Below are positions 11,969-55,621 of a stretch of 64,000 bases of DNA, in pieces (positions within the stretch are counted from its first letter, which is position 1; each line of letters opens with the position of its first letter). Location of the stretch: IMG/VR virus record IMGVR_UViG_3300033978_000437; one strand, 5' to 3'. A program made the translations under genes and the position numbers. The notes beneath the pieces were generated by a model. That model did no database searches. It saw only the letters and a list, made by a program, of their open reading frames with translations, and had not been told where the DNA came from. Source of the stretch: a virus.

Positions 11969-12916
11969 TTAGGTAAAGTCAACCCTAGCAAGACCAGAGG
12001 TATGACCAATGGTGCCACCTAAGGTTTCATAAGCAAAGAATTCGATAAAATACGCTTCACGACGGATGTACATCGTGGTGTCTTCTATCAGGTAGCTCTT
12101 GCCGATAAATTTAGGGTCAGCGAAATGATACATCGTACCAGTTGGGACAAGTCCCTTCTTAATAGTGATGATCCACTGAACACCCATAAATTCGCTGTAG
12201 GTCCAACCATTACGCATAATCTCTTCACTAAGATCGCCACCCATATCATTACGATTGAGTTTGGCAACTTCTTTGATAGTGATGTTATTAAGCAAAACGG
12301 AATGAACTTCAAGATTAGAAGGAGTGCCTGGCATAATCTTAAAGCTGTCCCACAGGTTGCTGCGGGTTACCCCACCGCTAAGCTGTTTGTACTGGATTAC
12401 TCCAGAAGTAGGAACAGTTGTTCCTGCGCCAACAAGAGCAGTGTTGACCGCAGAAATAAATTTGCCATCTTCTTCCGCTAACATATCCTTAATGGCATTA
12501 TCGGATAGGATTTGTCTGATATCCATATGCCATGTGCGAAGTTCATCCACATCCTTCGTGAATTTAGGGGTCACGATGCGGTCAAAGGTAACTCGGTACC
12601 TATCACCACGGATGTACAAGTTGGTAGGAAGCGTGGCAAAAGGAATTGAGATTGCTGCTGGAGAATCTGGTTCCTTGTCCACGATCTTTACAGGCTTGTC
12701 CGTGTCAACTTGACGATCAAGATCGTCGTTGCTGAGTGGGATTGGTGGCATAATACGTCTGTAGAAGCCATCTTCACGCATCTTAGTCCTAGTGAAGTCG
12801 TTGACAGCGTCAACAGCTTGCTTTTCTAGGTTAGAGTCACGGGAAGCCAATTTTTCAAAAATTGTCTGACTAAGAAGTTTGCTTTCTTCTTGAGTCATGA
12901 TACTAGAATTAGCCAT
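11969..12916 (-). CDS. Major capsid protein (HK97 fold)
   Basis: 315 aa; pattern RIVTPKFTKDVDELRT...DIRQILSDNAIKDMLAEEDGKFI; follows protease-scaffold-decoration; strong SD AAGGAGG; N-terminal LEKQA. Confidence 0.8.
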   Translation of the reverse strand: MANSSIMTQEESKLLSQTIFEKLASRDSNLEKQAVDAVNDFTRTKMREDGFYRRIMPPIPLSNDDLDRQVDTDKPVKIVDKEPDSPAAISIPFATLPTNLYIRGDRYRVTFDRIVTPKFTKDVDELRTWHMDIRQILSDNAIKDMLAEEDGKFISAVNTALVGAGTTVPTSGVIQYKQLSGGVTRSNLWDSFKIMPGTPSNLEVHSVLLNNITIKEVAKLNRNDMGGDLSEEIMRNGWTYSEFMGVQWIITIKKGLVPTGTMYHFADPKFIGKSYLIEDTTMYIRREAYFIEFFAYETLGGTIGHTSGLARVDFT

Positions 12917-23945: not shown

Positions 23946-26900
23946 TCATTTAGAACTTTCTGCCCATCCTCGATACTCCGCTAGATCTTCATTGTTAGTT
24001 CTCAATTGGGATTCTAGTTTCGCCCTTTGTTCTGGCGGAAGAGAAGTATCTCGAAGTTGTGCTTCAACTGCCACAATGTTTTCTTTAAGCCCATTAACTC
24101 GATTACGCATGTCCGTGCTAAACAAGCCCTTACCTGAAGAACCACCCTCTCGCTCGTAAGTACCCATCATCTGCTTACGCTGTGCCTGTCTATTTAATAA
24201 CTGCTCCTGCCTTGCTTGCCCCCCTGCGTCTAGCTCCCCCTTAGCTTTTAACTCTGCTAGTTCTGTGTCCGCAGCTGTAACCGAATTTTGCATGGCATCA
24301 CGGAATTTGTGTCCGCCACTACCAAACCAATTTTGTTGGCCTAGTCTCCAGTTAGCTGTTTCATCCGCTGTATTTCCTTGTCTAGTTTTAGCGTCTTGTA
24401 TTTGTGCTTTTAAATCTGCAGTACCTTCTAAATTCTGCGGTTTAGTCAAAGCTAATTGTGCTTCTAGACCTTTTTGCTTTTCTACTTCCATTGCATTAAC
24501 TTGCGTTTTGTCTGCCACCGAGGCACGGGAACGAGCATCAGTTCCAGTTACTTTGTCACGAATAGCTTCACCGGCCATCCCAGCCTGCTCCCCAAGCATC
24601 CCCGCTGTCTGAGTTGCACCCCCAGCTATTAGCTGCGCATTAGCCACTGGGTTAAGAGCTTGTGCAGGGGCTTGCCATGCTGTATGCAGCCCATCTTTAA
24701 ACGAAAGAATGTCTCTCCAGTTTTGTGCTGCATCATTGGTTGTATTATCCCAACCTTTATCTACTATGTCTGAACCAACGCTATAAGCTTCCATACCTGC
24801 ACCAAGGAATGGCAGAGCTTTTCCTACTCCTTTAGTAAGTGCTGAAAATCCTTTACCTACATAACCTGCAGGTGCTTTAGGTAATGGGGGTGGACCTTTA
24901 GGCAATGGCGGGGGGCTACCAGGCACAGGTGGTGGAGTTGTAGGAAAGGGGGGCGGGCTTCCGGGTATAGGAGGCGGAGTGGTAGGAAATGCAGGTGGTT
25001 TAGGTGCCATAATTGTATTTTTTATACCATTGTAGCCAATTGGAGCAGCATACCCAAATGCTGTACCTGTATCTGGACCCGAGCGGGCTGCTGGTTTTTC
25101 CTCTGTAGGCGAGTCTACTGTAGGAGCAGATGCTGTAGGGGCACTAGGCTGGGAACCGCCACCAAACATATTAAGCATGCTATTCCACATCCCACCTTGG
25201 TTTGCAGCTGGGGTAGGACTGCTGCTAGGTGCATTAGATTGCGGGCTTTGGTTTAAATTTTGTTGTCCTTGTCCGCTGTTGTTTTGGGCACCACCCCCAA
25301 ACATATTAAGCATATTACCCCACAACCCATTATTATTACTTGTAGCTAATCCTTGTGAGGGTCTCGAATTAAATAGCTGTTGAAAATTACCACCACCAGC
25401 CATCCCACCTAACATCATAAGCCCCATTAAAGGATTTTGATTTAACATCTGCCCAGCTTGCCCTGCAAAATTAGAATTATTTTGCATCAAATAATTAAAG
25501 TGATTAAATTGATCCGAATTTGAGGTTGGGGTAGGTGTAGATGCGGGCGGAGGGGCTAAAGCAGAAGTGCCCTGATCGCCCTTTGCGTCAGTATCTTTGT
25601 ATGTGTCATACAGTGATGGGGCGGGGGCAGGAGTAGGTGCAGGCGCAGGAGTAGGTGCAGGGGTAGGTGGCAGAGCTGGCATGATATTTGGGCTAAGGTC
25701 AGCTGCTGGGGTATAAGGATGAGGTTCAGTATTATTACGAGGGGCAACCCCGCCTTCCATATGTTCTGGGGAATTTGACCCATTCCTTGGGGCTGGTCCG
25801 CCCATATATTCTGTAGCAGGGGTATTGGGTATCGGTTTAGAGACGGCAGGAGGCTTAGAAACGGAAGGTGGTTTAGAAACATCTGGAACAGAGTCCATCG
25901 CAAGCTTAGTTTGGCCAGGGGTAAAACGACCGCCAAAAAAAGGAGCGTTGCTAGGTGCTATAGGCTTTAATGCAGGAGGAGTAGGAGTTGCAGGTAGCTC
26001 ATAGCTAGGTTTAGGTTTTATTACCGCATGGTCTTTACCTTCTCCAAAATCAAGACCCATTGCTAAACTAGGAACAAAGCTTGTACCTCGTTCTTCGCTG
26101 ATAGCCCCATGAGTCACAGAATCTAAGAAACTTTTCTTTAAACCAGACCCATACATTTGAGTCATCCAGTCAGGATCATGCTGCATTTGATACAAACCAC
26201 GAACCATGTGGGGCTCAAATGGCGGAGGGTTCTTGTGTACTGGAATTTCATTGATTTCAAAATCTTGAAAATTCTTAAGCATAGAAGGTCGAATTTTAGT
26301 ACCAATAGTGTAATGCAGTATAGGTCGTTCAAGATATTGACCTAGTGCTCGCTTAGGAGTTAATCGCTGGTGGTCTTCTCGTGGTTTGTAAGTGTGCTCA
26401 AGCGTAGAGTAAGGAACAATATCGTCAGGTACATGGTCATCTGTTTCTTCTGTCAGCCTTACATGGTTAATAAGACCTCGAGCTAATACCTCTATGTTTC
26501 GTCTGTGCCCGAACATTCCGCTGTCACCCATTGCCTTACGAAACTCATTAACAAAATAGCGTCTTCCTTCGCCTACCCCTTTGTGCTCTGTAATAGTAGC
26601 AGGGTTAGGAATTCCTGAGCTAATTACATCCCCAGCCTCTACCTCGTCTCCTTTTTTTACTTTAAGATCAAACCCAGCCCCTACATAATGTTGTTTATCT
26701 CCAATGGTTACATAGCTACCACCCGCAGGAGCTTCCTCAATACGCTGTACTACTCCATCTTTTAGTGCATGCGCTGCCCCGCCTTGCATCTTCTTTGGAA
26801 CTTGCACTAATTGGTTTAAATACTGGAAACCGCTGACAGCTTTTTCTTGACCTGCCACTCCACCCGAATGTTTTGCAGATAGCTGACCTTGGCTAATCGG

Positions 26901-27878
26901 TTCACTTAAAGCATGTGCAGCCTGTAACCCAACTTGCTCGCCAAGCCCTGGAAGCTTTCCAGTTTCCCGAATACCTACATCCCTAGAATAAACACCACCA
27001 TCGGGAGATCCACCTACGAGGGCAGATCGTACTAAGATTTTAGATGTGCCAAGCCGTTTTAAATGATTCAGTATTTTCGGAGTAAGGGGAGTGTTTCGAG
27101 CATAAGGGCCAACAGCCCGAGCTAGCAGTGCTCCTTCGTTATCTGCGTCATCAGTGTCTACTACCAATCCTCGAATAGGTGCATCTTCTGCCTCTTCGGC
27201 ATCTTCTCCGGTTACCACTAATCTATGGCTAGTTTGATTAAGTTGTTTGTTAAAAAATCCGGCATCTTGTGTGGCAAACTTAGTTGCCATAATACCTTTA
27301 CGTGCCCCATAGGTTCCGGCCCAATACTCGGCAGGGGACAACCCTTCGCTGTAGCTACGCAGTACAGGGATTGGAATCACATCATCCCGCTGATCCGAAT
27401 ACAGCATGTCTGAACCTAACAAACTAGTTAAATTCATAGACTTACCGCGCGTACCTGACATTACCTGCATCCCAAGCGGATTCTTATTTAGCAATGCCTC
27501 TGCAAGTACTTGTTTTTGTTGTTCTGGACTTTCTTTACCAACGGCACGAATAATCTGCTCATTTCGCTGCTGATCTGTCAAAGATTCGTCAGATAGAATG
27601 TTGGTAAGTGTTGCTCTAACTTTCTGGCGAGAAGCTAATGCCGCTTTGCTTACTTGCAAATGGCGAAGACCAAAAGACATGCCACCCTGCTCTTGAGCCA
27701 TGCTTTGGCCAAGACCACTTAGCTTAAAAGAAATGTCTTTATAACGCTCTGGGTGTTGTTGTGCCACTTGCTGTAATAAAGATTGCAGCCCTTTTTTATC
27801 TAGCACACGATGAGAGTCTCTCAACTCTTCCGGAAGGACATCATTAATTAACAGTTGTCCAACGGTCGTATTCAACAT
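23946..27878 (-). CDS. rpoC: Phage RNA polymerase beta-prime C-terminal subunit fused to a 650-aa low-complexity/helical tail
   Basis: Bridge helix GLSPAEYWAGTYGARKGIMATKFATQDAGFFNKQL; trigger loop AAHALSEPISQGQLSAKHSGG; RRNIEVLARGLI; tail starts at KLA-MDSV (aa 658-664). Confidence 0.9.
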   Translation of the reverse strand: MLNTTVGQLLINDVLPEELRDSHRVLDKKGLQSLLQQVAQQHPERYKDISFKLSGLGQSMAQEQGGMSFGLRHLQVSKAALASRQKVRATLTNILSDESLTDQQRNEQIIRAVGKESPEQQKQVLAEALLNKNPLGMQVMSGTRGKSMNLTSLLGSDMLYSDQRDDVIPIPVLRSYSEGLSPAEYWAGTYGARKGIMATKFATQDAGFFNKQLNQTSHRLVVTGEDAEEAEDAPIRGLVVDTDDADNEGALLARAVGPYARNTPLTPKILNHLKRLGTSKILVRSALVGGSPDGGVYSRDVGIRETGKLPGLGEQVGLQAAHALSEPISQGQLSAKHSGGVAGQEKAVSGFQYLNQLVQVPKKMQGGAAHALKDGVVQRIEEAPAGGSYVTIGDKQHYVGAGFDLKVKKGDEVEAGDVISSGIPNPATITEHKGVGEGRRYFVNEFRKAMGDSGMFGHRRNIEVLARGLINHVRLTEETDDHVPDDIVPYSTLEHTYKPREDHQRLTPKRALGQYLERPILHYTIGTKIRPSMLKNFQDFEINEIPVHKNPPPFEPHMVRGLYQMQHDPDWMTQMYGSGLKKSFLDSVTHGAISEERGTSFVPSLAMGLDFGEGKDHAVIKPKPSYELPATPTPPALKPIAPSNAPFFGGRFTPGQTKLAMDSVPDVSKPPSVSKPPAVSKPIPNTPATEYMGGPAPRNGSNSPEHMEGGVAPRNNTEPHPYTPAADLSPNIMPALPPTPAPTPAPAPTPAPAPSLYDTYKDTDAKGDQGTSALAPPPASTPTPTSNSDQFNHFNYLMQNNSNFAGQAGQMLNQNPLMGLMMLGGMAGGGNFQQLFNSRPSQGLATSNNNGLWGNMLNMFGGGAQNNSGQGQQNLNQSPQSNAPSSSPTPAANQGGMWNSMLNMFGGGSQPSAPTASAPTVDSPTEEKPAARSGPDTGTAFGYAAPIGYNGIKNTIMAPKPPAFPTTPPPIPGSPPPFPTTPPPVPGSPPPLPKGPPPLPKAPAGYVGKGFSALTKGVGKALPFLGAGMEAYSVGSDIVDKGWDNTTNDAAQNWRDILSFKDGLHTAWQAPAQALNPVANAQLIAGGATQTAGMLGEQAGMAGEAIRDKVTGTDARSRASVADKTQVNAMEVEKQKGLEAQLALTKPQNLEGTADLKAQIQDAKTRQGNTADETANWRLGQQNWFGSGGHKFRDAMQNSVTAADTELAELKAKGELDAGGQARQEQLLNRQAQRKQMMGTYEREGGSSGKGLFSTDMRNRVNGLKENIVAVEAQLRDTSLPPEQRAKLESQLRTNNEDLAEYRGWAESSK

Positions 27879-27905
27879 GGATAGTTCTCAGCGTGTGCAA
27901 ATTAT

Positions 27906-27923
27906 TTAAAATCTGGATTTTAG
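27906..27923. promoter_or_regulatory. Copy of 18-bp palindromic motif upstream of the RNAP beta-prime-C gene
   Basis: TTAAAATCTGGATTTTAG, 27 bp upstream of the ATG. Confidence 0.6.
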
Positions 27924-28489
27924 TCGTCACTATCGTCACCACCAAAGGCGGCTTCGATATCTTTAAGAGTAATTTCTTCACTCTTGCCACGCTTTGCTTT
28001 CTTACGAGATGGCTTAGGTTCATCTTGTATAATAGCAGCCGCCTCTGGCATACTCTCAACAACTTTGACTACTTCTTCTTTAATAGCTTCAGGAGCTAGT
28101 ATAGAAAAAGATATGGAGTCTGCCTGATCACGGGTTAATTCTCCCCGTCCAACCGACATGTCTACAACGATTTGCAGCTGTGTAATTATATATTCAGTGG
28201 CCTTCACTGTGATAAGCGTGGCTCCGTTTTCAAATTCAGCTTGTATGGCTGCGAGCCCATAGCAATTATCAAGTATTTCTAACTCTACTTCTTTTTTTGG
28301 AGGAAGTTGAAGTTTAGCAATAAGAGGGGCATCTTCTAATATAGGTAGTGACATCTCGGCATAATACTTATTATTAGAAGAGTTTAAGTTAGAAGATTGT
28401 TGATAAGTAGGAGCAGGGATAGCTGTAAGGCTAACCTCTGGTTTTCGGTCTCGATAGTAGCAGTCAGAAGATCGTAAAGAATCGTCCAT
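27920..28489 (-). CDS. Hypothetical protein
   Basis: 189-aa ORF between the RNAP genes. Confidence 0.55.
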   Translation of the reverse strand: MDDSLRSSDCYYRDRKPEVSLTAIPAPTYQQSSNLNSSNNKYYAEMSLPILEDAPLIAKLQLPPKKEVELEILDNCYGLAAIQAEFENGATLITVKATEYIITQLQIVVDMSVGRGELTRDQADSISFSILAPEAIKEEVVKVVESMPEAAAIIQDEPKPSRKKAKRGKSEEITLKDIEAAFGGDDSDD

Positions 28490-28490
28490 A

Positions 28491-28715
28491 TTACACCTGT
28501 ATCTTAGTAGAAATAACGGTTTCGTTAATACCTAGTTTACGCAAATTATCATTGAAACTGGCATCTTCACAATGAGACACCATAACGCTGGAAGAACCAC
28601 CAAAAAGTGCAGCTACGCTAACTGGAGTACCATCTAGCATACGCACTACAACCTGAGAAGCAGGTATCCTAAGTGGAGGTTTACCAATACTTTCAAGTAC
28701 CTCCACGATAAACAT
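28491..28715 (-). CDS. Small hypothetical protein
   Basis: 74 aa; SD AAGGGA. Confidence 0.55.
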   Translation of the reverse strand: MFIVEVLESIGKPPLRIPASQVVVRMLDGTPVSVAALFGGSSSVMVSHCEDASFNDNLRKLGINETVISTKIQV

Positions 28716-28727
28716 ATAATAAATCCC

Positions 28728-29462
28728 TTACTTGTTATTATTACGCATTAAAAGTGCAGTAGCCAACGCTGCTACACTGCCACTTTTAACAGAAGTATGT
28801 TGAGGGTAATAATCCGCAGGCAAGCTGAAAGCTGTACCACTTTCCCACGCCTCCGCTGACTTCATAGGAGCAATAGGTTGAATCTGCCCAAGACCACCAC
28901 CCGACTTACCATCGGGAGTAGCTGCCGCTAATCCTGGCCCACCTTGTGCAATCTGGTTTAAGTCTTCAGGTGTTACCACCATATCAGACACAGGTACATG
29001 GATGCCAAGTGCATCAATAATCTTAGCAAGCATTTTCTTAATCTGTACGATTTCGACATTGATGTCAATTTTAGGTTTAAGACCGGGGCCTGCGCCTTGT
29101 GGTTGCCCGCCACCATTAGCTGACATTGCTTGTTGCACTGCCTGTTGAACCATCGGCATTATTGCTGCCATGGGGTCCATAGGGGGAGGAGGTGGAGCAC
29201 CGCCACCCATAGAAGGATCCATAGGAGGAGGTGGGGCACCACCGCCCATAGAAGGATCCATAGGAGGAGCACCGCCCATTGAAGGGTCAGGAGGTGGAGC
29301 ACCACCGCCCATAGAAGGATCCATAGGAGGAGCACCGCCAGAAGGCATAGGAGCCCCCATAGCAGGATCGCCTGCCGCAACAAATGCATATTTAGATAGG
29401 TGTCGTTTTCCTACATGTTGTCGGGCCATCTTTAACAATTCCAAATTAACTGCCATAAACAT
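28728..29462 (-). CDS. Scaffold-like Pro/Gly/Met repeat protein
   Basis: Four DPSMGG(G)APP repeats after LSKYA; likely start at ATG 29456 given SD spacing. Confidence 0.65.
   Translation of the reverse strand: MFMAVNLELLKMARQHVGKRHLSKYAFVAAGDPAMGAPMPSGGAPPMDPSMGGGAPPPDPSMGGAPPMDPSMGGGAPPPPMDPSMGGGAPPPPPMDPMAAIMPMVQQAVQQAMSANGGGQPQGAGPGLKPKIDINVEIVQIKKMLAKIIDALGIHVPVSDMVVTPEDLNQIAQGGPGLAAATPDGKSGGGLGQIQPIAPMKSAEAWESGTAFSLPADYYPQHTSVKSGSVAALATALLMRNNNK
29171..29345 (-). repeat. Coding tandem repeat (PMDPSMGGGAPP)n
   Basis: Repeated CCCATAGAAGGATCCATAGG-type units on the plus strand. Confidence 0.85.
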
Positions 29463-29528
29463 ACTCCTTGTGTGATCTCATCTTATGATTCTAAGTTCTA
29501 ATCAAAATCTAGGATAGAGATATATTGC

Positions 29529-32500
29529 CTAACCATTTAAAATTCGTACGGGATCGTTGATCGAAATATCTCCACGTGCATGCGCTCGTCTTACATCCTG
29601 TATATTCTGGAAAATCCTTAATGGTCGATCAGATTTACGAGAAGGATCTGTACCCATAAATAAACCACCAATGTACTCATTAGCAGGGGCATGCATTACA
29701 GACTTCATATCACCCACACTAAAAAGATTACGACTTGGCAATAAGCGGTCAAATGCTTCTTGCCTAGCTTTTTCCGTACTTGGCACATGATAGTTCATGG
29801 TGTCGCCATCAAAGTCAGCACCAAATCCCTTCACGATCAAAGGACTTACTTGTAGGGTATTCCCTTTAGTCAATCTTGGCCTCATCGCCATAATCCCAAA
29901 CTTATGCAAAACAGGAGCACGACTAATATATACAGGACGATGCTCCATCTCTTCAAGCAAGAATTTGCGTGCTACCGGAGTCTTATCTTCTAATTGAGTA
30001 CGAGCCTGCAGCATCGACATGCCTTGTCGCACCAATCTTCTAGTAACAAATTTCTCATAGACCTTAAATGCTTTATCTTCGGGCAGCCCTACCGAGTCCA
30101 TGTCCAATTCCGGATTTGGAGTAATTACCGCTCGACCTACATTGTCTACCGTAGACGAAATCAGTTTGCGTTGTACAACCCCGAACTTAGGGCTTGCACC
30201 AAACACATTTTTTAAAGCCCCACGAACATTCTTCTCTTGGCTTTTTGCACTAATAGGATCACCTAACCCAGTCACCGCTTTAAATGCTTGATAGGTAGAA
30301 AGACGCTCCGATCCCGAAGCTTCTTCCCCTACTTCTTGCTGCATTTTGCTAAAATTCTGATTAGCCTCAAACAGTTCTTTATAAAGGTGATTAGCGTCGT
30401 TAACCAATGGCATGCCATTGCTCATCAAGCTAACTGGACGAAACATTGGAGGAAGAACTGGCACTTTGGTCAGCATGTAGTCCGCAGGCTTCAGCCCTAG
30501 TTTATGTGCAGATTTAAAATAGCTAAGCTTACGAATTGCGGCATCTCGTTGCGCCCCTCGCCCTGCGGCTATCATAGCTCGAGCTTTAGGGATTTCTGCT
30601 TCTGGATTAAGATTCTCTAATGCCTTTTGTAAAGCTTTCGTACCGGTGCCATATTTCTCTAAAAATTCTGTACCTGCCACAATGCCTTCAAACTTTTTCT
30701 GTGTTAGCCCAAGCATATGACGAATAGGTTCTTCCATTACTGGGTTAGGTAAAGGTTCGTGCAAACGCATAAACGACCAACGAGTGCCCCCGTGTCCACC
30801 AGTTTTAGCCTTGTCAAATAAGCCACCATTAATCTCTTTAAGCTGATTTCCCCATTCTACTCCGTCTGCGCTGCTAAGCTCACGATCCCCAGCTAAGTTG
30901 TCAATGTCCTTGTCCGTCAATGCCATGATTTGAGTCTGCGTTCCTTGCTTAACCACATTAACTCCAGCAGATTGCAGCTGGGCTACAAACTTCTGATAAG
31001 CAAAAGGAACTTTAGTAACCTTAGGGTTATACCCAGACATGTACTGCATCCAATAATCATCATTCTTCTGCCTACGAATTGTAAAAATGTCCTGCAGTGT
31101 GTCCGTAGCTCCGTGAGAAAGTAATGCGTTGGCATCCATTAGCCCAATACGCTTAGAACCTTCAACACCACCTTTAGCCGGTGCATCTTCCATCGTGTAA
31201 GCTCCACCACTTCTACCTTGTCCTTTAGACTCAGAGGTGTGATGCAGTTTCATGAAGAAACGATTACCCGTTGCCACATTTTTAATTTTTTGATCTTTAG
31301 ATGGGTCTATAATGTCTTCTAAGTCCGACAAACCTTCCTTAGCTAATTCTTGCATAACCCATTGAGTCATATCTTTTTTAGTGTCAAAATCATCCACCTT
31401 AATAGGCATGCCACGCTTAGCTGCTATTTTACCTAGAAACAATTCAGACATTTGAGCTGGGTTGGTTCGGCTAATAATCCCAAGAGGATTAAGAAGCACT
31501 TCAAAAGGTTGTTTATTTGAATCATGGGGCATTTCGCTATCTGGGATGATGTCAGCAATAACACCTTTATCCCCATAACGACCCGACAGCTTATCTCCAA
31601 CCTGCGTTGGCGATTCTGCCTTAACTACAACGACTGGACCTTTCTTACCCATTACCACATCAGTAACAACACCACTATCGTGATGCTGCCAAAGTACTGC
31701 TGCGTCGTTGAATCCAGATTGACCCTTCTTATGCACTTTGTTGTATACATTTTCCTTTTGTGTGATCCCCAATACCAAAGGATCTCCAAAGTTAACTACT
31801 GTACCAGGCTTGACCACTCCTTGATCGTCTATGTTCGCTAATATGTCTTTTTTAAAGGTAGCTGGAAATGCTTGAATAAATTGTCTTTTACCGACTTGTG
31901 TTTTGTCATCCACTTCCAACTCATGCTGGTACATATGGGAAGAAGCTGTCTTCTTTGCAAAGCTTTCTGAGATAACAACCGCATCTTCAAAGTTTTTACC
32001 CTGCCATGGGATATAGGCAGTGCGAGCATTTCGGCCTAAAGCCATTGTTCCAGTACTGTCCGTGAAGTTAGAGCTAGCTAATAACTGATTTGGTCTAAAT
32101 GTGTCACCGGGTTTAACTGCGGCAGTTTGATGAAAAAAGGTTTTACGATTGAAAGGAAAATTATGATAAAGTTCGTGCGTTTCTTCTGTTCCGTCTGCAT
32201 TACGCACTTTAATCTCTTCATCCGTCACCGAGGTAACTGTACCTCCTTGTGTTGCCCTTAAAGCTCCCATCCCAGATGAGTATAGCTCTTCATAACTTTG
32301 TTTACCGCCTGTGTGCGGAACTGCAGACTGTACCAAAGGAGCTTCAGGAGAAGCTAAAGGTAATGCTTGTGTGGTCATACGAGATGCCATCACTAATCGC
32401 TGACCTTTTACCTGACTCTTCATGGGGATGACATTAGAAAGAGGATTAAATGCTTCTTCCATGTCAGGAAGCTCTAAATCAATGCTTGATTTAGGTACAT

Positions 32501-33995
32501 GTAACATCTTACCGCCACGCATCGCCACTACACGGGCATCTTCACCATCTTGGCTTCCGGGAAAACCAACGGTTAAGTCTGCTACATCTTGAGGAGTTTT
32601 AAAAGTCATTTCCCCGCTACGCAGATCCTTAAACTGAGCATAGAGCTTACCATCGCTTCCTTTACGAGATCCCCTAGCTAGATATGTGTCCACCCCTACA
32701 CGACCCGACTCGGGAGTACGCACAGGATCCACATAACCCAACATGCTTGACTGTACATTTCTGGATTCCATGGGAATTGCATCCATAGAACCAATACCAC
32801 CCTCACCCACTCGAGTAACAGACATTGTCTTTTCATAAATGTCTGTAGGATTAATTTCTTCAATCGCTTGCCCTAGCCCGCTACCGAGCAAAGCACTTTT
32901 TAACTGTTTTTCTAATGCTGAAGACGGCATCGAATCCAAATTACCTTTGCCTGACATCTTCCACAGTAGGTTACGGCGAACCCCGCCTTTATCTCGTGCA
33001 ATACGCTCTGAAAACAAATCTTCTGGACCTACAAACTGCTGAAAATGCAGTGCATCTCTATCATCCGGATCCGCTTCCTTTCTATTAACCTTTATCAGCT
33101 TTTTGGTAATGTCCATCAATGTGTCTAGTGTGACACCTGAATGTGGGTTTCCCAGCGTGCGACGATTTACCTCGGGATCCATTTCCATCTTAGAAAACTT
33201 AGCAAGCAATGCTTGTTTTTGTTTTTCTTCTGGTTCAGCTAGTTCTTTAGAAGAAAGAAACATGCCTTTAAGTCTTGTATACTCAGATGCATCATCCGAA
33301 TTGTAATTAGAAGCGAATAGATCTTTACCCCAAGCTTCCTGCGCCTGCTCCGAGGTAACTCCCATAGCTTTTAACAAAGGAGTTAATCCAACTGAAGCTT
33401 GCCCAACCTTAAGCTTAAATTTGCCTTTCTCAGGGTCTAAGAAATAACGCTGTGATACGCCTTTTCCAGGCATCACATTAACATGGGATTCAATTTCACC
33501 ATTGTTCCGTGTGCGGGTGTAAACTCCGGGCAGTAACCGCTGTTGATTTCTTAAAATGTACTCAGTGCCATTGTTAATAAAGGTACCACGCTCCGTTAAG
33601 TGTGGGACAGTGGCAAGAACTGATTTCTTGGAGGCTATCACTTGCTGTGTTGCATTATCCATTAACTCCCAAGTTCCTTCTAACCTACGACCTTGAGACC
33701 TACCATTAAGAATAGCAGCTTTCTGCTCCTGCTTGCTGGCGGTATCCCCATCACGATAGTTTACTCCAGTTAAACTAAGCGTATGTCGGTCATTAGATAT
33801 AGGTTGTACTTGCTGTGCTGCTTGCAACACTCTGTCATAAATAATAGATTTGACTTTTTTGGTGTCGTGAAATTCATGAAAACTAGGCAATGGAGCTGCA
33901 GGCTGCATTGTTTGTAGAAGCTGTGCCTGTTGTGGCACCCCGCCTAGCAACGAGATGTTAGCAGTATCAAACAAATTAGACGAAAGTGGAAGCAT
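29529..33995 (-). CDS. rpoB: Phage RNA polymerase beta subunit fused to the N-terminal (catalytic) half of beta-prime
   Basis: Beta motifs GTFINNGTEY, DPVRTPESG, IPWQGKNFEDAVVISE, GDKLSGRYGDKGV, LNPLGIISRTN, FMKLHH; then beta-prime motifs PVLPPMFRP, GRAVITPNP, SRAPVLHKFG and catalytic GADFDGD (29802-29822). Confidence 0.95.
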   Translation of the reverse strand: MLPLSSNLFDTANISLLGGVPQQAQLLQTMQPAAPLPSFHEFHDTKKVKSIIYDRVLQAAQQVQPISNDRHTLSLTGVNYRDGDTASKQEQKAAILNGRSQGRRLEGTWELMDNATQQVIASKKSVLATVPHLTERGTFINNGTEYILRNQQRLLPGVYTRTRNNGEIESHVNVMPGKGVSQRYFLDPEKGKFKLKVGQASVGLTPLLKAMGVTSEQAQEAWGKDLFASNYNSDDASEYTRLKGMFLSSKELAEPEEKQKQALLAKFSKMEMDPEVNRRTLGNPHSGVTLDTLMDITKKLIKVNRKEADPDDRDALHFQQFVGPEDLFSERIARDKGGVRRNLLWKMSGKGNLDSMPSSALEKQLKSALLGSGLGQAIEEINPTDIYEKTMSVTRVGEGGIGSMDAIPMESRNVQSSMLGYVDPVRTPESGRVGVDTYLARGSRKGSDGKLYAQFKDLRSGEMTFKTPQDVADLTVGFPGSQDGEDARVVAMRGGKMLHVPKSSIDLELPDMEEAFNPLSNVIPMKSQVKGQRLVMASRMTTQALPLASPEAPLVQSAVPHTGGKQSYEELYSSGMGALRATQGGTVTSVTDEEIKVRNADGTEETHELYHNFPFNRKTFFHQTAAVKPGDTFRPNQLLASSNFTDSTGTMALGRNARTAYIPWQGKNFEDAVVISESFAKKTASSHMYQHELEVDDKTQVGKRQFIQAFPATFKKDILANIDDQGVVKPGTVVNFGDPLVLGITQKENVYNKVHKKGQSGFNDAAVLWQHHDSGVVTDVVMGKKGPVVVVKAESPTQVGDKLSGRYGDKGVIADIIPDSEMPHDSNKQPFEVLLNPLGIISRTNPAQMSELFLGKIAAKRGMPIKVDDFDTKKDMTQWVMQELAKEGLSDLEDIIDPSKDQKIKNVATGNRFFMKLHHTSESKGQGRSGGAYTMEDAPAKGGVEGSKRIGLMDANALLSHGATDTLQDIFTIRRQKNDDYWMQYMSGYNPKVTKVPFAYQKFVAQLQSAGVNVVKQGTQTQIMALTDKDIDNLAGDRELSSADGVEWGNQLKEINGGLFDKAKTGGHGGTRWSFMRLHEPLPNPVMEEPIRHMLGLTQKKFEGIVAGTEFLEKYGTGTKALQKALENLNPEAEIPKARAMIAAGRGAQRDAAIRKLSYFKSAHKLGLKPADYMLTKVPVLPPMFRPVSLMSNGMPLVNDANHLYKELFEANQNFSKMQQEVGEEASGSERLSTYQAFKAVTGLGDPISAKSQEKNVRGALKNVFGASPKFGVVQRKLISSTVDNVGRAVITPNPELDMDSVGLPEDKAFKVYEKFVTRRLVRQGMSMLQARTQLEDKTPVARKFLLEEMEHRPVYISRAPVLHKFGIMAMRPRLTKGNTLQVSPLIVKGFGADFDGDTMNYHVPSTEKARQEAFDRLLPSRNLFSVGDMKSVMHAPANEYIGGLFMGTDPSRKSDRPLRIFQNIQDVRRAHARGDISINDPVRILNG

Positions 33996-34015: not shown

Positions 34016-34810
34016 TTATATGGCATGAGGAATAGCATAAATTTCAGGAGGCTGTACTAATGCCTGCCGACGTGCTCTTTCCTCCACAGCCTCATCCAAT
34101 ATCGCACGCCTGCTATTCTTCTTCATTGCTTTATTGACCAAATAGTAACCAGCAGGAACACTTGATAATAACCAAGTTAAAGCTAACCCTTTGCTAATAC
34201 CAGAAGCGTTTGGAAAAGTAGAATTAAATGTGTCAGAGATAGCTCCAACAGGATCTAATGCCGACTTTTGACTGTACCCTGCAAATGCTCGATCTAAATA
34301 ATCATCAGTTCCTTTCTTATATGCGCCTAATAAAGCTTCCTCATACTTCTTTTTTGAGGCTTCAAGTTTTGCTTTGCTTTCTTGTTCTTTTGCTCTGTTT
34401 AACAAAAGATCCACACCTTTCCACCCGCCATAAGCAGCAAGCGGAGCTCCTAAAAGCATACCAGGCAAATAATAGTCTAAGCCATAAGGAGAAGTTGCTC
34501 TAGAATTCGAATCAATAGCATTTTTCTCTTTTGGGTAAGCTACTGGCATATCAATTACGCGTGGCCCCTTTTTAGGATTTTTTGTATTATCAAAAAGTCC
34601 TGTAATCCCTCGAACTGCAGCTCCTGCCCCTACGCCTAATGCTAATGTTTTAAGAATACTTTTAATTGCATCAGCTTGCATTTGCTGATTAACTTGAGTT
34701 CTGAGGTCTTCACCAATTGCACCTACTGGAGTAACAATGGGGGTTGCTGCAGATTTTTCAACTTTAATTTGTTTCAATAACTTTTTTGCACTTGTCTTAT
34801 TCATGTCCAT
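34016..34810 (-). CDS. Three-TM glycine-rich virion/membrane protein
   Basis: EKSA, EKNA, QKSA motifs each followed within about 20-35 aa by a hydrophobic Gly/Ala segment; no Cys. Confidence 0.6.
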   Translation of the reverse strand: MDMNKTSAKKLLKQIKVEKSAATPIVTPVGAIGEDLRTQVNQQMQADAIKSILKTLALGVGAGAAVRGITGLFDNTKNPKKGPRVIDMPVAYPKEKNAIDSNSRATSPYGLDYYLPGMLLGAPLAAYGGWKGVDLLLNRAKEQESKAKLEASKKKYEEALLGAYKKGTDDYLDRAFAGYSQKSALDPVGAISDTFNSTFPNASGISKGLALTWLLSSVPAGYYLVNKAMKKNSRRAILDEAVEERARRQALVQPPEIYAIPHAI

Positions 34811-42730: not shown

Positions 42731-42940
42731 TTAACCTTCCGTCCACCCCTGTTTGTAGCCCCACAATCCCACCTCTAACTTAGAGGAAAGATTTAGTTTT
42801 TTACGGATACGTTTAACATAAGTCTTAATTGTTTCATAGCCAAGATTAAGCTTTACTGCAATGTCTTTGTACTTTAAGTTTTTACTGATTAGTATGACTA
42901 TTTCCCGTTCTCGTGCCGTCAACCCTTTGTCTTGCTGCAT
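42731..42940 (-). CDS. Stand-alone LuxR/GerE-type HTH DNA-binding protein
   Basis: LTAREREIVILISKNLKYKDIAVKLNLGYETIKTYVKRIRKKLNL. Confidence 0.88.
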   Translation of the reverse strand: MQQDKGLTAREREIVILISKNLKYKDIAVKLNLGYETIKTYVKRIRKKLNLSSKLEVGLWGYKQGWTEG

Positions 42941-54100: not shown

Positions 54101-55621
54101 CTAAAGTTCCTTAAGCAAATCTAGAAACTTGTCATTTAGCTGCTGCTTACGATTACCCGCCGCAATGAGGTAATCATCGGTAGCAGATAAAGGATTAACT
54201 TTAATTCCGATGTAGCGTAGTAGAGACTTTAATCGACTTGGGGCTGTTCTAGCTATATATCTCTCTATCTTTACTTTCCTATCTGCAAGAGGAAGGTGGG
54301 CATGACTGTCATACCTTAATCCTCTACCTTCACTCTGCTCAGACCTAACATTATTCCAATGCGGATCCAATAGCTGCATAAGCTTCGTACCCTTAAACGA
54401 AAGTCCCTCAGTACCAGACGGACCAAGCAACGCTACCTTCAGCTTATCTGAGTTGTAGTCGTCTACCAGCTTCTTTCGTTGTTTGTCTGATAGTGCACCT
54501 GTGAAGGACGCTGCAGGGATACCAGCTTTGTCCAACGCAGCTTGATAAGGGTTCAGTCCTGACTCAATAAAGTTAGAGAAGATGAGAGCTTTACCCTTGG
54601 GATCCTTTTTAACCAACTCATTAACTCTTCTAAATGCTTCTGTTAGCTTTGGGGAACTGTTGAACGCAGCCATAGGGTCAGCTTTGTCTTGTGTGAATGT
54701 GCTAGTAGATAAACCCAGCTGTCTTGGCCCAGTCAAAAAGCTAACCATCTTCTTAGACTCTGCATCACTCAGCGGGTAGTTTAATTGCAACTTCCATTTG
54801 AGCAAGGCGGGTAGCTTACCATACATTTGTGAGTTTAGGTCCGTCTGATCCCTAGTCATCTCTGTAATCACATCTTCCCTATTGATCTCTGCTTGAGGCT
54901 TAGCTGGTGCAAAGTAATCTACCTTGCCTCTTAAGTTGTTCTTTAACTCCTCTACATTCTTTAAACCCGGATCGGGTGCCTTTAGATTAAAGAAACGGCG
55001 ATACAGCGAAGGTTGTGGGTCATTGTCTACATACCTAGCACTAAACTCTTCTGGAGTCGTATCCTTGCCGGTAAGCACGCTGTAAGGCACTGCAAAATCC
55101 GCAGGCGAGTTCACAATAGGAGTACCGCTTAGCATCACCACTTGTTTTGCTTTTCTAGCTGCGTCTAACAAATTCTGCGTCTGCGCAGATTGAGCGTTTC
55201 TAAACCGATGTGTTTCATCAATAAGCAACGAATTAGGATTCGCTATAGGAAGTCCTCTGCCTAGCCCAGTATGGCTCATAATGCTGCTAGGCACTGCCGT
55301 ATCTTGGTCGATGAACTTCTCTTGCTCTTTCCTTAGATTGGTACGGAGAGCAGCGGGTACGATTGCGGTGTAGGGGAGCTTCGAGCTTTCAGCAGCCGCT
55401 AAACCACCTAAGGTCTTACCCGAGCCCAGCCCTTGATACAGTAGCAATCTAACCTTGTCCTCAGTAGCAAGCTGATTTTGCACATTGCGTACAACTCTTT
55501 TTTGATGAGGTTGCAGCTCAATTCCAGAATTTAAATCTGCACGCTTGGTGAAACTCAACTTAGCAGCTTGCGTTGCTAAATAGGCAATTGCGTCAAAGGT
55601 ATTACTGGAGCGTTTAAACAC
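54101..55621 (-). CDS. SNF2-family helicase/ATPase with N-terminal leader
   Basis: LQPHQ, YQGLGSGKT, LLIDETH, MLSGTP, QSEGRGLR; leader ends TKRA (aa 28); no Cys. Confidence 0.88.
   Translation of the reverse strand: MFKRSSNTFDAIAYLATQAAKLSFTKRADLNSGIELQPHQKRVVRNVQNQLATEDKVRLLLYQGLGSGKTLGGLAAAESSKLPYTAIVPAALRTNLRKEQEKFIDQDTAVPSSIMSHTGLGRGLPIANPNSLLIDETHRFRNAQSAQTQNLLDAARKAKQVVMLSGTPIVNSPADFAVPYSVLTGKDTTPEEFSARYVDNDPQPSLYRRFFNLKAPDPGLKNVEELKNNLRGKVDYFAPAKPQAEINREDVITEMTRDQTDLNSQMYGKLPALLKWKLQLNYPLSDAESKKMVSFLTGPRQLGLSTSTFTQDKADPMAAFNSSPKLTEAFRRVNELVKKDPKGKALIFSNFIESGLNPYQAALDKAGIPAASFTGALSDKQRKKLVDDYNSDKLKVALLGPSGTEGLSFKGTKLMQLLDPHWNNVRSEQSEGRGLRYDSHAHLPLADRKVKIERYIARTAPSRLKSLLRYIGIKVNPLSATDDYLIAAGNRKQQLNDKFLDLLKEL

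Follow-up and report, generated by a model that had tools for sequence, protein, structure and literature searches.

A two-chain, bacterial-type RNA polymerase lacking cysteine and both β′ zinc sites in an uncultured marine phage

IMG/VR virus record IMGVR_UViG_3300033978_000437 derives from an uncultured marine tailed phage of ~180 kb. The stretch of it analyzed here, 64,000 nucleotides and referred to as the window, encodes an RNA polymerase (RNAP) consisting of two long chains of 1488 and 1310 residues, both of which lack cysteine (Cys) as well as the zinc sites of the bacterial β′ subunit. The window corresponds to positions 82690-146689 of the 178,753-bp single-contig record, read on the minus strand; the record is an estimated 83% complete. 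Positions below refer to the window unless marked as genome positions. All sizeable genes of the window lie on its minus strand. The polymerase genes are located, on one strand, between the gene for the portal (genome 69656-71572) and that for the major capsid protein (MCP; Table 1), in synteny with Salmonella phage Arash, and thus lie among late/structural genes, within the head module marked by the MCP.

The 1488-residue chain matched the Pfam families Rpb2_6 (residues 582-935, 3.7e-50), Rpb1_2 (residues 1334-1414), Rpb1_1 and Rpb2_3, as well as β chains in the PDB over residues 369-1036 and β′ or cyanobacterial γ chains over residues 1114-1486. This chain therefore comprises a complete β subunit fused to the N-terminal half of β′ (β/β′N). 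The 1310-residue open reading frame (ORF; 23946-27878, minus strand) matched the part of β′ that begins near E. coli residue 620, with PDB β′ chains covering residues 2-494, and its start coincides with the point at which cyanobacteria split rpoC1 from rpoC2 (γ/β′). Polymerase sequence is confined to its first ~620 residues (β′C core), which are followed by a tail of ~650 residues. Matches to Rpb2_6, Rpb1_2 and Rpb1_5 exceeded the Pfam gathering thresholds, while those to Rpb1_1 and Rpb2_3 stayed below them; PDB β and β′ chains were matched at E 1e-69 and 1e-35. The assignment corrects an earlier reading of this DNA, made from the letters alone (the sequence-only reading), in that the two chains are not β and β′ as such. 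The phage enzyme has the catalytic loop, the bridge and trigger region and the domain order in common with cellular β′ (E. coli/Salmonella rpoC), but differs from cellular RNAP in having neither zinc site, in the fusion of β to β′N and in missing lineage-specific insertions. Judged by its catalytic loop and core domains, it classifies as a bacterial-type two-barrel β/β′ polymerase. As Rpb2_6 and Rpb1_2 each map to one place only in the genome (83% complete), one polymerase set was found.

Counting Cys in every ORF confirmed that both chains are devoid of this residue (0 in 2798 residues), as the sequence-only reading had stated. TGT and TGC codons are absent in frame from the polymerase DNA, while each off-frame contains 43-72 of them. 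The background level of Cys is 0.85% in the ORFs of the window and 1.33% across the 178,753-bp genome, being 1.83% in the replication module, about a third of the genome, versus 0.89% in the late/structural part. With these means, the probability of encountering no Cys in 2798 residues is 5.5e-17 (genome) or 4.5e-11 (window). Thirteen ORFs of at least 200 residues have no Cys, all of them in the late module, compared to a genome-wide expectation of 1.6. Further statements of the sequence-only reading also hold: the 506-residue SNF2-family ATPase contains no Cys, a 1292-residue protein has its Cys confined to residues 12-291, leaving its last ~1000 residues free of them, and the tail proteins contain 4-9 Cys each. 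A general depletion across the proteome, which would have spoken against a special status of the polymerase, was not found, with the replication module at the level given above and portal, terminase and ribonucleotide reductase all keeping Cys. Methionine, the other sulfur-containing residue, makes up 3-4% of the polymerase.

Both β′ zinc sites are conserved in bacterial RNAPs, and the second one (Zn2) is needed for assembly of E. coli RNAP. We aligned the phage chains with Salmonella rpoC, the residue numbering of which is the same as in E. coli. At the position of the N-terminal zinc ribbon, a deletion of ~32 residues has removed C70, C72, C85 and C88 and leaves GGLFDKAKTGGHGGTRW; the same deletion is found in Arash and in Vibrio phage D69. 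At the second site, the context reads VVTGEDA...RSALVGGSPDGGVYSRDVG, with RSALVGGSPDGGVYSRDVG (residues 284-302; 26973-27029) aligning to RSVVSCDTDFGVCAHCYG, and all four ligands are substituted (C814, C888, C895 and C898 by A227, G289, Y297 and D300). The loss of the ribbon and of the second site, both proposed from the sequence alone, is thus borne out by alignment, and the Cys-free, zinc-site-free state of both chains is confirmed.

To place these observations in a wider context, we gathered relatives by a word-indexed search and an exhaustive HMMER search, many of them being representatives of clusters at 50% identity. The 252 relatives of the β′C core are 47-99% identical to it. In the aligned core, 39 Cys occur among 155,471 residues (0.025%) and 232 of 255 sequences are entirely Cys-free; for β/β′N, with 120 relatives, the corresponding values are 38 Cys in 178,756 residues (0.021%) and 100 of 122 sequences (these totals include Arash and D69 as references and, for β′C only, Salmonella). 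The β′C tails of the relatives contain 53 Cys in 127,222 residues. The Zn2 quartet reads x-G-Y-D or a close variant in 252/252 relatives and is never Cys, while Arash and D69 read CCCC; Zn2 was therefore already lost in the ancestor of the clade, and its substitute is conserved in turn.

The polymerase genes of the relatives also provide an internal control. They harbor ~85 inteins at no fewer than ten insertion sites, and while the inteins share gene, genome and mutational background with the polymerase, they are excised before the protein matures. The inteins contain 562 Cys in 26,807 residues (2.1%) in β′C genes and 172 Cys in 7,690 residues (2.2%) in β/β′N genes. Each intein begins with a Cys, and the residue after it (+1) is always Ser or Thr, so that the polymerase stays Cys-free after splicing. 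In window-equivalent numbering, the sites (relatives P0031-P0361) lie at about residues 187, 201, 209, 324 and 333 of β′C and 620, 803, 922, 945, 1275 and 1398 of β/β′N, one of them inside the catalytic loop (ADFDG|D-TMN); the window polymerase genes themselves contain no intein. These figures show that the absence of Cys reflects selection, neither drift nor composition.

Which other proteins share the trait was assessed by comparing the window phage (G000) with two relatives assembled whole, G004 (190 kb) and G005 (181 kb), using reciprocal best hits as orthologues. Proteome-wide Cys contents are 1.33-1.35% in the three genomes, and the RNAPs of the two relatives are ~52% identical to that of the window phage. 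Seven orthologue groups of at least 180 residues have no Cys in any of the three: β/β′N, β′C, a 244-residue ORF between them, the SNF2 ATPase, a 245-residue sigma factor, a 1731-residue tape-measure-like protein and one ORF of 184 residues. Other proteins keep theirs, with 14/13/12 Cys in terminase and 15/18/20 in ribonucleotide reductase (G000/G004/G005), 19-27 in an 1163-residue protein, 3-15 in tail and baseplate proteins, and 5 (G000) and 9 (G004) in the portal, of which G005 has no orthologue; the capsid protein has 0/2/2. The purge thus marks a specific set, consisting of the transcription machinery and one giant protein resembling a tape measure, and not virion or late proteins generally. 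Among further relatives, sigma is Cys-free in 5/5. SNF2 is Cys-free in G004, G005 and Arash and has 2 Cys in ~3,680 residues from seven relatives; in G004, its gene is flanked by the two genes for RNAP.

The 245-residue protein (genome 155648-156385) is probably the sigma-70-family initiation factor of the polymerase, as predicted from a match to Sigma70_r3 (25.5 bits; cut-off 25.3), a weak match to Sigma70_r4 and a PHROG sigma match (1.3e-8), and is the orthologue of Arash Gp10. Its gene sits in the tail/baseplate block beside a Baseplate_J gene, like that of Gp10, and not among regulatory or early genes. The SNF2 ATPase is the orthologue of Arash Gp217 (31.7% identity). The 1731-residue protein is probably the tape measure; its gene (genome 147188-152383, just outside the window) lies between tail and baseplate genes, its identity among G000, G004 and G005 is 27-30%, and a family search with it returned no match.

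Table 1. Features of the polymerase region and associated genes in the window
Feature	Position	Strand	Basis
Complete β fused to N-terminal half of β′ (1488 residues), 0 Cys	29529..33995	-	Pfam and PDB matches
Former β′ zinc ribbon, GGLFDKAKTGGHGGTRW, residues 1057-1073 of the 1488-residue chain	30777..30827	-	Alignment with Salmonella rpoC, Arash Gp206 and D69 0261
Catalytic loop GADFDGD, residues 1392-1398 of the 1488-residue chain, intact	29802..29822	-	Aligned to Salmonella β′ NADFDGD
C-terminal half of β′, polymerase core, residues 1-620 of the 1310-residue chain, 0 Cys	26019..27878	-	Pfam Rpb1_5, PDB, alignment
Former second zinc site, A227/G289/Y297/D300 of the 1310-residue chain	26973..27218	-	Alignment with Salmonella rpoC
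FFGG(R/K)(F/Y)K..K-x-A element and ~650-residue tail of β′C, 0 Cys	23946..25940	-	Sequence; relatives
Cys-free protein between the polymerase genes (244 residues)	28728..29462	-	Sequence; 0 Cys also in G004 and G005 orthologues
Cys-free protein directly upstream of the polymerase gene (264 residues)	34016..34810	-	Sequence
SNF2-family ATPase (506 residues), 0 Cys	54101..55621	-	Pfam SNF2-rel_dom, Helicase_C, ResIII
Major capsid protein (315 residues), 0 Cys	11969..12916	-	29% identity to Arash Gp226 MCP, E 6e-33; weak PHROG major head match

Our search of a phage collection retrieved no cultured phage nearer than Arash (OQ632216) or D69. These two phages and Vibrio phages D148 and D181 share with the window phage the two-chain layout (β and β′N fused, β′C separate), the zinc-ribbon deletion and the location of the polymerase genes beside portal and head/capsid genes, and their orthologous sigma and SNF2 proteins are Cys-free as well. 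Their large chain contains 1-2 Cys in ~1525 residues, compared to none in the 1488 residues of the window chain, and Arash β′C, with 606 residues versus 1310 in the window phage, has no C-terminal tail.

For Arash, mass spectrometry of purified particles has been reported, in which 116 of 272 proteins were detected, including ribonucleotide reductase, primase and ligase (PMC10585845). In these data, Gp206 (β/β′N) ranks at the top of all proteins with 128 unique peptides and 3516 spectra, and Gp216 (β′C; 40 unique peptides, 1210 spectra), Gp217 (SNF2-like; 38 and 1148) and Gp10 (sigma; 24 and 467) compare with the portal (32 and 877) and a tail protein (58 and 832), whereas primase, ligase and other helicases yielded 2 unique peptides each (217-932 spectra). 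A second sigma factor, Gp196, which has 3 Cys, is missing from the virion protein list (PMC10585845). The authors allow that abundant enzymes may co-purify (PMC10585845). Even so, the four Arash homologues of the Cys-free transcription proteins have counts expected of structural components and not of contaminants.

Virion-packaged, ejected phage RNAPs form a known class that includes N4 gp50, the phiKZ virion RNAP (vRNAP), crAss gp66 and the P23-45 TMP-RNAP. A direct count (NC_008720) found 0 Cys in the 3500 residues of N4 gp50, in line with the precedent invoked by the sequence-only reading, and the ejected gp51 and gp52 have none either. In T7, the ejected gp15 and gp16 have 0 Cys and the ejected gp14 has 1, while portal, tail, fiber and terminase proteins have 2-5 each. 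Cys suppression has been described family-wide for Schitoviridae ejection proteins (Lokareddy et al. 2024, PMC11445570), and the same work cites the idea that crossing of the disulfide-forming periplasm selects against Cys. N4-like gp50/gp51/gp52 and DEV gp71-73 would resemble the present case in that a giant polymerase is carried in the particle and ejected, with Cys suppressed (PMC11445570). As a further likeness, the core of N4 vRNAP is flanked by long non-catalytic regions, to which the β′C tail would be the counterpart in the window phage. However, N4 vRNAP is a single-subunit, T7-like enzyme of unrelated fold, whereas the window enzyme is of the sigma-dependent, bacterial two-barrel type and consists of two chains.

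The phiKZ vRNAP is likewise a β/β′-type multisubunit enzyme; it has no α or ω and is packed in the head and injected. As the Pfam models did not detect the phiKZ RNAP subunits, we read the annotated genes directly; the phiKZ and window polymerases are too distant in sequence for Pfam to link them. PhiKZ carries β and β′ in at least four pieces plus a second, non-virion set, whereas the window phage has one set of two chains with β and β′N fused, and the phiKZ arrangement of virion and non-virion sets of four to five polypeptides each was not found in it. None of the four phiKZ vRNAP subunits contains a zinc-ribbon CxC..CxxC motif, on which we base the absence of the ribbon, while non-virion gp55 carries C58/C60/C73/C76 (CxC-x12-CxxC), the spacing of the E. 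coli zinc ribbon. Non-virion gp74 has C288/C341/C350/C353, as also given in PMC8287921. We had considered that the phiKZ virion enzyme might lack both zinc sites, but rejected this idea, as the alignment of gp80 with gp74 shows a matching four-Cys cluster.

Taken together, the best reading of these data, which we consider probable, is that the polymerase is packed into the particle and injected into the host. We infer packaging from the homology with Arash and, beyond it, ejection and the selective cause. The two chains, which would probably be the phage's only RNAP and work with the 245-residue sigma and the 506-residue SNF2 ATPase, would be made late, together with these two partners, alongside the head genes. 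Polymerase, sigma and SNF2 would then be packaged into the capsid and leave it through the tail together with the DNA, upon which the polymerase would transcribe the first phage genes. Having no Cys, an unfolded chain could cross the tail channel and an oxidising periplasm without being trapped by disulfides; having no structural zinc, it would not need to take up the metal again on refolding in the cytoplasm. The sequence-only reading had proposed a virion-packaged multisubunit RNAP adapted to unfold and cross the periplasm. Its prediction that RNAP is present in virions agrees with the mass spectrometry of Arash, in which the homologues of both chains, sigma and SNF2 rank with the best-detected proteins of the virion, and the depletion proved selective; the periplasm as its cause is not separated from oxidative stability in the particle. 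As a more tentative extension, the clade might inject a complete self-refolding kit of two-chain core, sigma, SNF2 and a small partner, all free of Cys and structural zinc, which would make it independent of host RNAP from the first second.

Several points weigh against packaging and injection. The packaging evidence comes from a relative at ~30% identity and none from the uncultured clade, the nearest cultured phages, Arash and Vibrio phages D69, D148 and D181, being 26-30% identical. The Arash preparation is impure (116/272 proteins), and detection by itself therefore carries little weight. The periplasm is an assumption about the host. As the record is ~83% complete, a second polymerase or sigma could lie in the missing part. 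A promoter search in 60 intergenic regions of at least 40 bp found no common k-mer except the ribosome-binding AAGGAG. Moreover, the four phiKZ vRNAP subunits (gp80, gp149, gp178 and gp180; NC_004629) contain 16 Cys in 2614 residues (0.6%), although this enzyme is established as injected, and gp80 keeps the Zn2-like cluster of four Cys that aligns with gp74. Likewise, β′C of Arash and D69 has exactly four Cys, the Zn2 ligands, at the place of x-G-Y-D in the window clade. Complete loss of Cys and zinc is thus not required for injection, and Cys suppression as in the window clade (0.02-0.03%) is not universal among virion RNAPs. The enzymes rather form a graded series: cellular and phiKZ non-virion RNAPs have the ribbon, Zn2 and many other Cys; the phiKZ virion RNAP has no ribbon motif, retains Zn2 and has fewer other Cys; Arash and D69 have lost the ribbon by deletion, retain Zn2 and have 1-2 other Cys; and in the window clade the ribbon is deleted, Zn2 is replaced and no other Cys is left. 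The extreme state of the window clade therefore needs an extra cause. Resistance to oxidation while particles persist in seawater for long periods is a plausible one, which is not separated from the periplasm idea.

In its strict form, this extra cause constitutes an alternative, in which the polymerase is packaged but avoids Cys since thiols and zinc-thiolates would become oxidised over a prolonged stay outside cells in oxygenated, sunlit seawater, not for the sake of tail or periplasm passage. The clade is largely marine or aquatic (by a Tara source name), the capsid protein of the window genome is Cys-free as well, and the enteric/coastal Arash and D69 have kept the Zn2 Cys that the marine clade has lost. 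However, exposed virion proteins keep Cys in all three genomes (5-9 in the portal, 3-15 in tail and baseplate proteins), the MCP orthologues of G004 and G005 have 2 Cys, and the proteins that are strictly Cys-free correspond to ones ejected in other phages (tape measure, injected polymerase). We regard exposure to seawater as an unlikely sole cause.

Alternatively, the polymerase might not be packaged at all but act in the cytoplasm at late or middle times, its lack of Cys and zinc protecting it from a host defence aimed at thiols or zinc, or from oxidative stress in the infected cell, or reflecting economy of zinc or reduced sulfur. Three of the points raised above lend themselves to such a view, namely that the clade itself yields no direct evidence of packaging, that the Arash particles were impure and that injection of phiKZ vRNAP is compatible with a Cys-containing enzyme. 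Yet the cytoplasmic enzymes that this phage encodes contain many Cys, and do so across relatives (15-20 Cys in ribonucleotide reductase, 12-14 in terminase, 19-27 in the 1163-residue protein), and sulfur is not spared in a polymerase with 3-4% Met. The trait is furthermore common to the tape-measure-like protein, which has no cytoplasmic role, and the peptide counts of the Arash homologues resemble those of portal and tail proteins, not those of replication enzymes. An unpackaged enzyme is hard to reconcile with the Cys-rich cytoplasmic enzymes and the Cys-free tape-measure-like protein, and we deem it improbable. That the absence of Cys is due to chance, composition or an annotation artefact is refuted, to a negligible residual probability, by a P of ~5e-17, the frequent TGT/TGC codons in the off-frames, the persistence of the trait in 232/255 and 100/122 aligned sequences (references included) and the 2.1-2.2% Cys in inteins of the same genes.

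The window phage very probably belongs to the mReC kind, uncultured tailed phages of ~100-200+ kb from aquatic metagenomes with deep-branching β and β′ (Weinheimer & Aylward 2020, PMC7481178), to which we liken it by description. That study mentions none of cysteine, zinc, virions, sigma or inteins, and a review of jumbo-phage RNAPs mentions neither Cys nor zinc. Two elements were already known separately, the Cys rule for ejected proteins (N4-like phages, single-subunit) and virion-borne multisubunit polymerases; the novelty lies in finding both in a sigma-dependent enzyme of two chains in which even the Zn2 site is replaced. A whole clade without either zinc site or any thiol offers a natural model for the folding of a metal-free two-barrel polymerase, and, if the kit is real, x-G-Y-D would show how the otherwise universal Zn2 fold of bacterial β′ is built without metal. 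If the polymerase is indeed packaged, the rule that ejected proteins lack Cys would extend from N4-type single-subunit enzymes to a sigma-dependent multisubunit enzyme, sigma and SNF2 would be named as its likely travelling partners, and Cys-free status combined with the intein control would allow the ejected cargo of uncultured phages to be predicted cheaply, from sequence alone. For in vitro work, a self-assembling multisubunit polymerase that has neither Cys nor zinc could be of practical interest.

Several further Cys-free regions and proteins accompany the polymerase. The β′C tail is of low complexity, rich in Pro and in Gln, Asn, Gly and Met, with Gly-zipper and coiled-coil character; it matched no Pfam family and has no homologue in G004 or G005, the β′C chains of which end shortly past the core. 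Tail length differs among the relatives, many of which keep the FFGG(R/K)(F/Y)K motif (25887-25940, minus strand) right after the core, followed by K-x-A and an acidic residue. This element may be cleaved by a protease or act as a signal for packaging. The 244-residue protein carries PPMDPSMGGGA repeats and is rich in Met (8.6%), Pro and Gly; family searches gave no match, and it may be an additional polymerase partner. The 264-residue protein, likewise without a match in family searches, has three Gly-rich hydrophobic helices, and its place recalls that of the small ejection proteins beside N4 vRNAP. A Cys-free protein of 975 residues (genome 80296-83223; 63467-64000 and beyond) has no reciprocal-best-hit orthologue in G004 or G005 and shows an acylphosphatase-like match (PF00708, 26.7 bits) over residues 580-634.

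Two weak matches to sigma domains were found in addition to the 245-residue protein. One, to Sigma70_r2 (genome 63725-63853), was discarded, as Pfam scans of both ORFs at that place did not support it. The other, a Sigma70_r4-like match below the cut-off (20.6 bits), lies in a 72-residue open frame (42794-42925, minus strand) that may encode a small helix-turn-helix regulator.

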